From: Octopus vulgaris
Taxonomy: Eukaryota
DNA length: 64,000 bases
NCBI GenBank assembly: GCA_951406725.2
Contig: OX597830.1
Span: forward strand, 22,196,001 to 22,260,000
Direction of reading: 5' to 3'
Shown: positions 49,135-63,133 of the stretch, one piece after another
How positions within the stretch are numbered: the first letter of the stretch is position 1
Layout of the letters: each line of letters opens with the position of its first letter
Program-made: the position numbers and the translations under genes
Notes under the pieces: generated by a model
Told to the model about the DNA's origin: nothing
Database searches by the model: none
What the model saw: the letters and a program-made list of their open reading frames with translations, nothing else

Positions 49135-49248
49135 CTCGGAGTTCCCTAAGGTGAGTCTTGACTGCAATATGAGCAAGAATTGATTTTATTAGGAACCATA
49201 AAGGCCAAACACAGGAATGTGACAGTCGTGCTTTTGAGTTTGGCACTT

Positions 49249-49262
49249 GTGCCATCTAGTGG
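49249..49262 (-). promoter_or_regulatory. CTCF-like motif in the duplicate SAFB promoter
   Basis: The reverse complement CCACTAGATGGCAC also matches CCASYAGRKGGCRS. Confidence 0.55.
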
Positions 49263-50689
49263 TCACCACAAAAGAGGCAGTTTCGACGTTACGATAGCCA
49301 GAAGGGAGCTAACTGTTGTGTAAATAAATATTGAAACTATTGATTGCGTCCTTAAGTTTTTGCTTCAACGTGATATCAGTGGATCAACAAGTCTCGTCAG
49401 TCACTTATATATATATATAATACATCATACCCCGGCCAGTGATAAGTTAACAGATCTCAGGGTTGTGGATCTCCGCAGTGAACTGGGAAAACGAGGTCTG
49501 GACAAGACTGGAGTATAGGCCGTGCTGTTGGAACGTCTGGAAAAGGTAGGAGAGATCTTATAATCAGCGACGGTGTTTATGTATAATATATATATAAAGG
49601 CATAGTAGTATATAATAGATATAATAATGTTTGGGTTTCGTGAACCTTCAAAACCTCTTGTAAAAATGTCAAGCCAACATTAGAAGAAAATTATGTTTTC
49701 ATTGTGAGGAAAGTCATTGTAGCCGTTTAAAACACAAACCGTTATAATGACTTTTGTTTATATTTCATAAAAGCATAACTGATTATTTGTTACTAGTACT
49801 TCTTCGTTGTATATCTACCCCTGGTAATCAGTCCCCATCTCACTATTTACGTGAATGTAATGGAATATAATATCAGTTGTAAACGGACGGCGAAAAACTG
49901 ATGCGCAATGACGAAGTTTCGAAACAAGCTCACCCACATAAGTTTTTATTTTTCTGTTTTCCCCGGGAGTTTTGAAAGTTTATATGCACCATGCAAATGC
50001 TTTTATGAAAAAAAACTTGTTTGGAAATTTATGGTTTCTTATCCCCTTTCTACCGGACAGATTTTTCACACACACCCCCCATCCTTTTTAGGAGAAGGTA
50101 CGATGAAAGATGAAGTCGACTTTGGCGGTATTTGAACCCAGAATGTTAAGAGCTTCAGAAATGCCGCTAAGCATTTTTATCTGGTGTGTTAACAATTCAA
50201 CCAGCTTCCTGATAAATAGAAAGTCTAGCGTTATATATCATCATCATATAATAAAAGCATTTCTTTATTTAGATGTGCACATTGGAACTCACGAGGTAAC
50301 TTAGCTACCAGGTTACAAGATGACTAAATTTCACAAAGTATTTTGAAGGAGGTTACACTTTAGTTTTGCCTCCAACGCAAAATAAGTGTCAAATTCAATT
50401 ATTAAAGGGAAAATTTTTAAGTCACTGATATGAAGCAATTATTCAGGTGCTTAAAATGATATGCATATATTTTTGTAGACAAAATATCTATAAAAGTATT
50501 ACTTTACTTCAAACTTAACCGAACATTTTGATATCAGATGAGAGCGATTAAAATAAACTATTTAAAATCATATTTCATTTATACTGTTGTAGTTTGTTGC
50601 TTGTCTTCATATTTCGATAAAACCTGGTTTGGTTAACGAAAACACAAATGATCCTCTTTACATTTATTTAATCGTCTATGAGCGTTCAG

Positions 50690-59549: not shown

Positions 59550-59690
59550 GGAGGCGCAATGGCCCAGTGGTTAGGGCAGCGGACTCATGGTCGGAGGATC
59601 GCGGTTTCAATTCCCAGACAGGTGTTGTGTGTGTTTATTGAGTGAAAATACCTAAAAGCTCCACGAGGCTCCAGCATGGGGGGGGGGCTG
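59550..59690 (+). mobile_element. tRNA-derived SINE head
   Basis: GGAGGCGCAATGGCCCAGTGGTTAGGGCAGCGGACTC...GGTTTCAATTCCC has pol III A/B-box-like motifs but no tRNA acceptor-stem closure. Confidence 0.65.
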
Positions 59691-60838
59691 ATATTATTTC
59701 CTCGTGCATTTTTGTTTGGGGGGGAAAAAGGTTTAACTAGGATTGAAGGAAAATGGCTCCTACTCTTAAAACTGGTCCTATGAGAGAGGACTCGCCACAT
59801 GCTTATTGCTATAATTCCTATTATTAAAACTGCGATGATTGATTTGTTATATAACAAACCAATACAATTTGTGCCAGCATTGCAAACCAGATGGTAATAG
59901 ATCGATAGTGTGTGTGTGTGTTGGGGGTTACTTCAGATATCTAATGGTTTCTGTACCAACAATTGATATACATGTTGTGCTAATAGAGATTGAAGGAACT
60001 CATCAGTGCTTCTGTTTTCTCTTTGCCACAGGCTCTGAAAAGTGAAGAAAATCATAAAGATACCGAAGGAAGTGAAGAGAAATCAGGTGCAGTTCCATGT
60101 CATTTATTTTAATCATAGGTGTTTTGTTTCTTTTGGTTTTATATCAGTACTTGTGCACGGGTGGATAAGAAGCTTGCTTTGTACTATGTGGTTTCAGAGA
60201 ACCCCAGGCTGTCCAGTGTAAATGTGTTTGGTAGGCAGAAACTGTGTGGTTGACCCATCATTTATATATAATCTGTGTGTGTGTGTGTGCTTGCGAGTCT
60301 CTTTGTTTATTTCCCATCATCTGTTAAATGATAATGATGAATAGTGATTATTTTAGCTAGAGTGTTGCCGGTCACACTGGGAGATGTATTGATCCTGATA
60401 ATTTTATTTCAGACAGTAAATATATTAGATGTGTTGTTCACTTTAGCAAACTTTAGCTGACAAGTTCCATTCCCATTTGACAGTAATATACCTTATGGGT
60501 AAGAAGTGCATTAAAATCCTTTCTACCATTGTTAATGTGACAATTGGATATAAAACAGCAACTTTGTTTCATGCTTTTTTAACTAGTTAATATGTAATAC
60601 AGTGTTCTCATATTCAGGTGTGTGAAACTGAATTTTAAACTGGTTAGATGTGTGTAACAGTATTATGTAATGTAGTGTTTTTAATCCACTGTCATGTCAT
60701 GTGAAACTATTTTAGTCTGTGATCAGATGTATATAGTATAGGGGTGTGTGTTTGACTGAATAATGTATAATACTGAAATTACTGAACTGATGTTGAATTA
60801 TTTTTTTTATTTCCAGAAAACAAACTTATACAGACAAC

Positions 60839-63133
60839 ATGGATGAGGTTGGTGAATTTTGTCATATTTTTATAGATAATTTATTGTCATCTATGTATTT
60901 TCCAAATGTCACTGTTTAGTATACTATTTTTTGGAGGTGTTTACTCTGGCTCAAAAACAAAAATCTATTGTGTGGTTAAGAGGCTTACTTTGCAACCATG
61001 TGGATTCAGGTTCAGCCTTGTTACATGGCACCTTTGGCCAGTGTCCTCGACTAGAACCCCAGGCTGTCCAATGCTTTGTAAATGAGTCTGATAAACAGAA
61101 ACTGTGTGCTTCTTGACAGATTGTAGTATACACAGATATGTATGTATGATGGGCATGTTTCAGTTTTTAATTACCAACTCCACTCATCAGGTGCTTATAA
61201 TGCCACTCTTAATCTATCTTCTCTTCTAAACAGCTCCTGTCAAGCTTCCATTGCTTCCATGATTAAAACAGTGGGTACATGATAATCTTTACTCATTCAG
61301 CAAAGACAGAATCATTGCACTTATTAGGAAATAATCTTGAACTGAACCCTTTTTAGTGCTTAACCTGTAAAGTTGCAAAAACTGCTAGGATTCAGAACCA
61401 CTGGATCTCACCTGGTGACCATACTTTACTGTGATGTGTTCACTTAGTTTACTTTAGTGTTAGAATTTCAATGTCAGTTTGTTAATGCTATCCATGAAAA
61501 AGACCAGTGAAGTACACAAACGTACTCTGGTCATTAATAACAGTTGAATTTCATAACTGAAAAGAGCTTTACCTGTAGCACATCAATGATCACTGTGAAT
61601 CTCAAAGAAGGAAGTACTATTATTCTATAATAATACTATAAATTTCCTTATAGTAAAAATGGAATACAGTAATAATTTAAGCATTCAATAAGAATACGGT
61701 ACTAATGGATATTACAGTGAGCAAAGGATAAATATAGGATGATTTAGTGTTGATGGTTAACAGAAACTTGTTTTATTTTAATTTTCAGAAAGAATCAGAG
61801 ACATCTAATGTGGCATTAACAGACGTCTTCTTAAACACTACCAATTCAAATGGTTACTCTTTGCTCTCTGACAAAACTTCTGTGGAAGACCTTTCTGAAG
61901 ATCAACTGCTTTCAAGTGGTACCAAACCATCAGATATGTTGGCAGATAACACCTTTGATAAAGACCAGTTTAAAGAGGAACTACCTATCTCTGCTTCAGA
62001 TACAAACAAAGACACTGGAACTGTTCTGCAGGTAATTAAAATTTACTACACCTTTTGCATCGTTCTACTAATTATATTGCACTACTTGTTTTAGTGCAAG
62101 TTATTACTTTCATTTCATAATTGGTAATTAGTGTTAGATATGGTATGATTTAATTAATATGAAAATTATTTTACTTGCTATTCAGCAGTTACTTATATCT
62201 ATCAAACTTAACCAGTTATAATTCCACTGATAATTCTTGAAACATAAAACCATTTCAGGACCAAATATTTTAATTCATATATACACAATTACATTAGATA
62301 TAAAGATAGGTGATTTTTTTCTTAATATGGATGAAAGTAATTTTACTTCACAGTTCAATAGTTAATTGTATTTGCTATGAAGTTAATCTGTTATAAATTC
62401 CACTGATGATTTCTCAATCTGAAAACCATTTGAGAACAAAATAGTGTGATTCTTCACTTGTCGTTCACAATTGTGTTTAACAAAAAGATCATCTTCATCA
62501 TCATCATCATCGTTTAAAGTCCGCTTTCCATGCTAGCATGGGTTGAACGATTTGACTGAAGACTGGCAAACCAGATGGCTGCATCAGGCTCCAATCTGAT
62601 CTGGCAGTTTCTACAGCTGGATGTCCTTCCTAACGGCAACCACTCCGAGAGTGTAGTGGGTACCTTTATGTGCCACTGGCACGAGGGCCAGACAGGCGGT
62701 ACTGGCAATGCCATACTCAAATGGTGTTTTTTACGTGCCACCTGTACAGAAGCCAGTCGAGCAGCACTGGCAACGACCTCGCTCGAATGTTTTTTCATGT
62801 GCCACCAGCACAAGTGTCAGTAAGGCAACGCTGGTAACGATCACGCTTGAATGGTAGTTTTTACGTGTCACTGGCACGGAAGCCAGTTTGCTGCTTTGTC
62901 AACGATCACGCCCAAATGGTGCTTTTTATGTGCCACCGGCATGGAAGCCAGTTTGCTGCTCTGGCAATGATCATGCTCGGATGGTGCTCTTAGCGCTCCA
63001 CTTGCATGGATGCCAGTCATCGAATTCGGAAAAATATTTTTTTCTGTCATTTGTTGTTGTTGTTAGTCATATTAGTCATTTTCTTTCTTCACTTTTCAGG
63101 AAGAATCTGATGATCCATTAAAGGATACCACAG
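60839..63133 (+). CDS. Putative coding start of a SAP-less SAFB paralog: join(60839-60847,61789-62031,63100-63133,...)
   Basis: The first ATG of the predicted spliced transcript (aacATGG) is in frame with the open exons 6 and 7: [19 protein letters not shown]...GTVLQ-EESDDPLKDTT. Confidence 0.45.
62495..63030 (-). mobile_element. RTE 3' UTR fragment in intron 6 of the duplicate
   Basis: (CAT)n, CCATGCTAGCATGG and 3' UTR subrepeats; absent from the corresponding intron of copy 1. Confidence 0.85.

Follow-up and report, generated by a model that had tools for sequence, protein, structure and literature searches.

A tandem SAFB copy of Octopus vulgaris with a recently lost SAP-coding 5′ end and its place in an octopus SAFB cluster

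Introduction

In vertebrates, SAFB1 and SAFB2 are laid out head-to-head. Neighbouring duplicates also occur in octopus, where they are same-strand tandem copies of at least five types. A 64,000-nt stretch of Octopus vulgaris DNA (contig OX597830.1, positions 22,196,001–22,260,000 of the forward strand; hereafter the window, to which all coordinates refer) contains a complete SAFB gene, copy 1, followed in tandem by the 5′ portion of a paralog, copy 2, whose exons are readable up to exon 7 and whose later exons lie beyond the window. A first-pass annotation had proposed that copy 2 may not be a pseudogene and may encode an SAFB without the SAP domain, either RNA-binding only or dominant negative.

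Drosophila SAF-B without SAP is described as nuclear and still able to reach induced loci; it is recruited through RNA, and chromosome binding is lost after RNase treatment (PMC2857882). In the rescue of splicing by human SAFB1, removal of the ER-rich C terminus is reported as the only deletion that failed fully (PMC10901741). The same source reports binding of SAFB to purine-rich RNA and its suppression of transposon exonisation and of transposon RNAs including L1, and it views SAFB as a pattern-guided, non-adaptive form of defence against transposon RNA. Its statement that invertebrates have a single SAFB contrasts with the at least five octopus types. RTE-type long interspersed nuclear elements (LINEs) are reported to be expressed in the octopus brain (PMC9115989). 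Coleoid tandem arrays (protocadherin, C2H2, S-crystallin) are described as same-strand full-gene duplications with fragmentary copies (PMC9068888); the SAFB cluster is alike in its same-strand full-gene duplication and much smaller. The main text of PMC9068888 gave no match for "SAFB" or "scaffold attachment", and no description of an octopus SAFB expansion was found in the literature searched, which did not extend to the supplements of that paper, where one could be listed.

Results and discussion

We tentatively favour, at a little below an even chance, the reading of copy 2 as a translated SAFB paralog without SAP, and counted for it the position of all lesions before an internal ATG at 60839, the 737-codon frame of the O. 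sinensis protein P0003 and contigs of one sequencing run (X1). The SAP lesions of copy 2 are young, and its SAP-coding 5′ end was lost recently. For reference, copy 1 (14455–45177, plus strand) has 20 exons, an open frame of 1010 amino acids and AG/GT at all splice sites, with SAP in exon 1, the RRM in exons 10–11 and then a glutamate/arginine (E/R)-rich region (PF02037 and PF00076 matches). Its protein differs from O. sinensis P0008 at 4 of 993 amino acids, and its first 400 amino acids are identical to O. vulgaris P0007. Self-comparison of the window showed that 14275–23990 recurs piecewise at 49238–63623.

The copy 2 leader region (49240–49437, plus strand, as are all copy 2 parts) is 79% identical to that of copy 1. 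The start ATG is interrupted by five additional bases (49429–49433), and a microhomology deletion has removed the 21 nt between two CCAGTG motifs, of which a single one remains (49436–49441). Exon 1 (49438–49545), the SAP remnant, therefore has no start codon and carries a TAG in place of AAG at 49516–49518. Exon 2 (60032–60086) is identical to that of copy 1 at 55 of 55 positions, as noted earlier, with adjoining introns 90–92% identical, and exon 5 (60817–60847) has 31 nt instead of 32 owing to a 1-nt deletion. These three lesions of the first-pass annotation are all real, and a fourth had been overlooked: at an approximate deletion junction within 60156–60373, some 3.7 kb of copy 1 are absent, including exon 3 (19964–19992, 29 nt) and exon 4 (20541–20595, 55 nt; both plus strand), whose peptides are both found in P0008 and P0007. 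A search of copy 2 for exons 3 and 4 revealed no trace of them (alignments scored 25 and 29, compared with means of 27 and 26 after shuffling; exon-5 control, 146). The claim that every splice site is preserved was thus not borne out; the remaining sites, namely the exon 1 donor and the acceptors and donors of exons 2, 5, 6 and 7, are AG/GT. In contrast, the claim that the lesions lie upstream of ATG 60839 holds for all four, with none in the 95 codons that follow. A GT 4 nt past exon 5 would restore the exon 2–exon 6 frame; it was rejected, as there is no start between the TAG and that site.

Copy 2 is an SAFB by descent, through homology and an exon structure common with the SAFB gene, and disabling lesions of its ancestral frame, as in a duplicated pseudogene, are present. 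It shares with the SAFB family (SAFB1, SAFB2, SLTM, Drosophila Saf-B) a homologous exon series and a SAP remnant, and P0003 adds an RRM_1 match and an E/R region. Unlike a canonical SAFB, it has no translatable N-terminal SAP domain (no ATG, TAG at 49516, exon 5 frameshift), and the RRM of its clade, described below, is 40–45% identical to vertebrate and canonical octopus RRMs.

The candidate new start, ATG 60839–60841 in exon 5, is an internal Met inherited from copy 1. It is the first ATG of the spliced transcript, as had been claimed, when transcription is taken to start at 49240 or 49279, but not at 49130 or 49200, where one or two tiny upstream open reading frames precede it. The strong context reported for it, CAACATGG, is present and is the same in copy 1, whose matching leader is also ATG-free except for its own start and one ATG in exon 4; the exons 3–4 deletion took away this further in-frame ATG from copy 2. 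Context and ATG-free leader were therefore rejected as evidence for a new start, both being inherited and neither derived. A stop-free frame of 95 codons runs from ATG 60839 through exon 7. Exon 6 (61789–62031) is open for 81 amino acids and has, as described before, an in-frame 3-nt insertion adding one codon and 13 changes in 80 amino acids relative to copy 1, and exon 7 (63100–63133) keeps its 34 nt. Exon 6 is 90% identical between the copies. The 3′ half of intron 5 beside it (61241–61788) is 95–97% identical, and may be a conversion tract or a conserved intronic element.

P0003 has copy-2-type exons 6–7 and remains open for 737 codons from the same Met through the RRM and the E/R-rich region (40 E+R in the best 100 residues, compared with 43 in P0008). 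Simulated neutral decay at 1.6–2.8% divergence left a 737-codon frame intact 0–6% of the time, so that, if P0003 is copy 2's counterpart, such a frame is unlikely under neutrality. This speaks against copy 2 being a young pseudogene, that is, a gene that died recently by start loss, with 3′ exons not yet broken and low-level transcription persisting, while an intact sister of the P0004 type with SAP present carries the function; we consider this possible, if doubtful. The distribution of lesions, four or five in the upstream 297 nt against zero in the downstream 283 nt, also speaks against a pseudogene, as do exon-restricted copy-2 contigs in X1. Among the contigs listed, to which all run results refer and which show presence, not absence, X1 has a 179-nt contig over 49279–49458 in which exon 1 has the ATG-less layout, and another of 116 nt that matches copy 2 exon 6 exactly and is separated from copy 1 by 13 positions; the unique-intron bins of X1 have zero depth. 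Copy 2 is probably still transcribed, as these contigs weakly show. For the 31-nt exon 5, bin arithmetic suggested a contig depth of about 3.3 in X1, which was too indirect and was not used.

Comparison of the two copies dates the lesions. In the last 36 codons of exon 1 the proportion of differing sites was 0.19 for synonymous (pS) and 0.037 for non-synonymous (pN) sites, with a dN/dS of 0.17, which indicates that purifying selection acted on the SAP exon during most of the period after duplication; in exon 6, pS was 0.21 and pN 0.07, and dN/dS was 0.3–0.4 in exons 6–7. The proposed comparison of dN/dS upstream and downstream of 60839 was uninformative (0.17 in exon 1, 0.3–0.4 in exons 6–7), because most of the divergence predates the lesions. 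Recent lesions, indicated by the low exon 1 ratio together with the identical exon 2, also suit a young pseudogene. Contigs of run X15 (seven listed), which differ from the window at 92 of 2846 letters (3.2%), have the same ATG-less layout and a SAP remnant changed at two more amino acids; the start loss is therefore real, shared and still decaying, and the further changes again suit a pseudogene. Occurring at this divergence, the layout is not an assembly slip. That the lesions are assembly errors or a private null allele is highly improbable: neither the TAG nor the exon 5 deletion is displayed among the listed contigs of any independent run, but the ATG-less layout appears in two other runs, X1 and X15, from two studies, and the introns of the copies differ by 4–24%.

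Several results weigh against translation of copy 2. The 95 window codons survived neutral decay 26–73% of the time in the same simulations, so the window alone says little and is compatible with decay, and the clustering of lesions within it was not significant (p 0.13–0.26, conditional on the first lesion). Exon 6 is changing faster than copy 1 (3 of 81 residues relative to P0003, against 4 of 993 between copy 1 and P0008; p 0.012); these three changes are compatible with relaxed or neutral change, and the dN/dS of 0.3–0.4 relative to copy 1 is mostly older than the lesions. The RRM and all of copy 2 past exon 7 are outside the window, the RRM and E/R-region figures being those of P0003, and P0003 may reflect real splicing between copies or be a chimera of annotation, with later exons that could derive from a further copy. 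That this annotation borrowed copy 1 5′ exons hints that the O. sinensis counterpart also lacks a usable start, its lesions thus being presumed. Three protein searches revealed no SAP-less model of copy 2 itself. Four of 24 listed sequencing runs were compared with the window, none of them recorded as RNA, the RNA status of X1 being a guess, and the copy 2 contigs of X1 have a depth of only 2–4. Exon 1–2 joints carry copy-1 letters at 49487–49488 in X1 and X9 and those of another intact paralog in X2, and no copy-2-type exon joint was found among the contigs listed from the four runs. Paralog-specific transcripts, an expectation of the first-pass annotation, are therefore represented by copy-2-specific contigs in one probable RNA run, but not by a copy 2 exon junction. 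Copy-2-like exon 6 contigs in X9 and X2 have the P0003/P0004 letters at 61993 and 61995 and were not assignable to copy 2. The neutral survival of the window codons, the faster change of exon 6 and the spliced exon-1 contigs not of copy-2 type are also what a pseudogene predicts, as is a 10.5-kb intron 1 with a sense LINE and other elements. Of the proposed SAP-less RNA-binding paralog, a plausible frame stands, through P0003 and the X1 contigs, while the young lesions, the neutral survival and an RRM that is not an ordinary one (41% identical to copy 1's in P0003) speak against it.

The first 100 residues of P0003 are those of copy 1 (100 of 100), followed by a copy-2-type exon 6. This is exactly the product expected if transcripts from the copy 1 promoter splice exons 1–5, with SAP, over about 40 kb to copy 2 exon 6, yielding a full SAFB with altered RRM and leaving the 5′ exons of copy 2 to decay as dispensable. 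The end of exon 5 and the start of exon 6 are both in phase 0, P0009 and P0007 show other cross-copy joins, and the sole listed exon-1 contig of X9 at 49487 is of copy-1 type despite the presence of a copy-2-like exon 6. Nevertheless, short reads from near-identical paralogs are expected to yield cross-copy joins as an artefact, and the final 19 nt of exon 5 do not differ between the copies; such splicing requires read-through beyond the end of copy 1 and skipping of 15 exons, X1 has copy 2's own exon-1 region, and the X9 contigs show presence, not absence. We consider use of copy 2 as a 3′ cassette for copy 1 quite improbable.

Judged by its relatives, copy 2 is a member of a multi-copy tandem SAFB cluster of Octopus and not of a two-gene pair. 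Public O. sinensis proteins comprise at least five SAFB types with five exon-6 types (P0008/P0009, P0006, P0011, P0014 and P0003), which presumably share one chromosome, and O. bimaculoides also has several (P0005, P0010, P0012, P0013). A search with copy 2 exon 6 found 10 proteins among 395 candidates, all from Octopus. Identity between the window copies is patchy, with 95–97% in the 3′ half of intron 5, 76–85% in other introns and 100% in exon 2, which points to possible gene conversion between copies. Contigs over an intron-5 segment had a depth of 136 in X15, compared with 34–51 elsewhere; depth does not equal copy number, and this value fits a segment common to several copies. Annotated octopus SAFB models without SAP include P0011, P0013 and P0010. 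All three resemble copy 2 in this respect, and P0010 starts at the same internal Met as 60839; in P0011 and P0013, however, the RRM is canonical, the paralog is another one, and the SAP-less state may be annotation truncation. In Sepia, P0015 and P0020 represent two SAFB-like clusters, P0015 with two RRMs and P0020 without a precomputed SAP match, which suggests that cuttlefish SAFB duplicated separately and underwent SAP decay.

Within this cluster, copy 2 is placed by exons 6 and 7 in a sub-clade with a strongly altered RRM. Its exon 6 differs by 3 residues from P0003, 4 from P0004, 8 from P0005 and 12–27 from other types. In exon 7 the peptide matches P0003's exactly (0 of 11 differences) and departs from P0004's. 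With the altered-RRM SAFB clade of O. vulgaris P0004, O. bimaculoides P0005, P0110 and P0111, copy 2 has in common the same Thr in the SAP N-terminus, and the altered RRM was seen in P0004, P0110 and P0111; unlike copy 2, P0004 and P0005 keep the start codon, SAP and exons 3–4, and their exons 2 and 7 differ from those of copy 2. The RRMs of P0003, P0004 and P0110, the starred clade of a 21-row RRM tree (from which P0111 was left out as too short), are 39–44% identical to that of copy 1 and 40–45% identical to vertebrate and canonical octopus RRMs, with 42–46 of 75 residues changed, whereas the copy 1 RRM shares 84% identity with the two vertebrate RRMs used for comparison. In the same tree, with modest support, the canonical octopus RRMs fall with those of Argonauta and separately from vertebrates. 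The altered domain is still recognised by PF00076 (P0003, 33.7 bits against a cut-off of 20.7; P0110 also above the RRM_1 cut-off). Compared with 50% representatives, it had one close match, P0111 (80%), in the best 150 of 1599, the other 149 being at most 46% identical, and a PDB search found generic RRMs only. Most of the K/E/S-rich linker past the RRM of the SAFB family is absent in P0003 and P0004. P0110 reads through into intron 11, for which 4 changes in 30 nt of the copy 1 intron suffice. The short O. bimaculoides models P0005 and P0010 seem, by eye, to skip exon 8 and to terminate with the RRM-start exons read in a shifted frame; the P0005 tail fits the altered RRM type by eye, which would make the altered clade older than the bimaculoides split.

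Between P0003 and P0004, 17 of 75 residues differ in the RRM, against 6 of 160 in exon 8 (p 1.6e-5), and the least non-synonymous distance of the altered RRMs from the copy 1 RRM codons is 0.39–0.45, about twice the synonymous difference of exons 1 and 6. This, together with the few changes needed for the P0110 read-through, suggests positive selection on the RRM of the altered clade, an argument from RRMs compared as protein only. Exon 8 of the altered clade, by eye, resembles Sepia P0015 where copy 1 differs; the clade's split may thus be older than its 5′ exons indicate, which counts against positive selection.

If copy 2 is translated, its duplicated promoter would drive a transcript whose leader of about 350–380 nt consists of exons 1 and 2 and the greater part of exon 5, and translation from ATG 60839 would give a protein of about 737 amino acids with an acidic disordered linker, the altered RRM and the E/R-rich region, by analogy with P0003. 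As for fly and human SAFB, such a protein would be expected to stay nuclear and reach chromatin via RNA and partners of the E/R region, and could act in splicing or in suppression of transposon RNA on an RNA set other than that of copy 1. The proposal of a dominant-negative SAFB found no support, and the reported effects of SAP loss do not suggest it (PMC2857882, PMC10901741); because of these SAP-less fly and human deletion results, an RNA-recruited SAFB with shifted specificity is likelier. Any tie of copy 2 to transposon RNA is conjectural.

The SAFB cluster with its fast-evolving RRM is a more interesting result than the status of copy 2 itself, and a cluster with an altered-RRM clade holds under every reading of copy 2 except an assembly or haplotype artefact. 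In a wider scheme, which we think unlikely, the RRM of this sub-clade of the tandem cluster is under positive selection, plausibly against the RNAs of transposons such as active LINEs, and copy 2 is functional, its SAP shed or borrowed by cross-copy splicing. Functional copies would provide a natural test of two points: whether SAFB defence can turn adaptive in a genome that is rich in transposons and has brain-expressed LINEs, as reported for octopus (PMC9115989), and whether SAP can be dispensed with. Should copy 2 be a pseudogene, it represents ordinary birth-and-death in a tandem array, and the cluster and the altered RRM remain.

Mobile elements and other features of the window

Intron 1 of copy 2 contains a LINE in the sense orientation (55905–58919, plus strand) with one 1004-codon open frame coding for endonuclease and reverse transcriptase and a 3′ end with a (GAT)n tail at about 59510–59540; the single endonuclease–reverse transcriptase frame and the short-repeat tail point to the RTE class. 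The element is apparently cut at its 5′ end and has a zinc-finger-like stretch past the reverse transcriptase. Lying in the sense orientation, it could trap transcription or splicing of copy 2. It was apparently inserted in the integrase part of a decayed Ty3/gypsy-type gag-pol-like remnant (53290–55905, by eye), one tested open reading frame of which had no Pfam match. Directly past the LINE tail lies, by eye, a tRNA-like head of a short interspersed nuclear element (59545–59640); ARAGORN called no tRNA, including at this head. Upstream of copy 2, a miniature inverted-repeat transposable element-like inverted repeat of about 150 bp (48595–48740 and 48975–49126, 88% identical) lies immediately upstream of the end of promoter homology to copy 1. 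A 12-mer at 49251–49262 (minus strand), which we take to resemble the CTCF motif, is kept in both copies (copy 1 equivalent, 14288–14299).

In copy 1, intron 2 contains an antisense, 5′-truncated LINE (18484–19308; 89% identical) of the same family as the intron-1 LINE of copy 2, and intron 11 a decayed piggyBac-like DNA transposon on the minus strand (33100–35660, bounds by eye; PF13843 match at 33946–34497). A minus-strand open reading frame of 287 codons with DUF7041, at 1528–2391, is probably a retrotransposon gag-like remnant.

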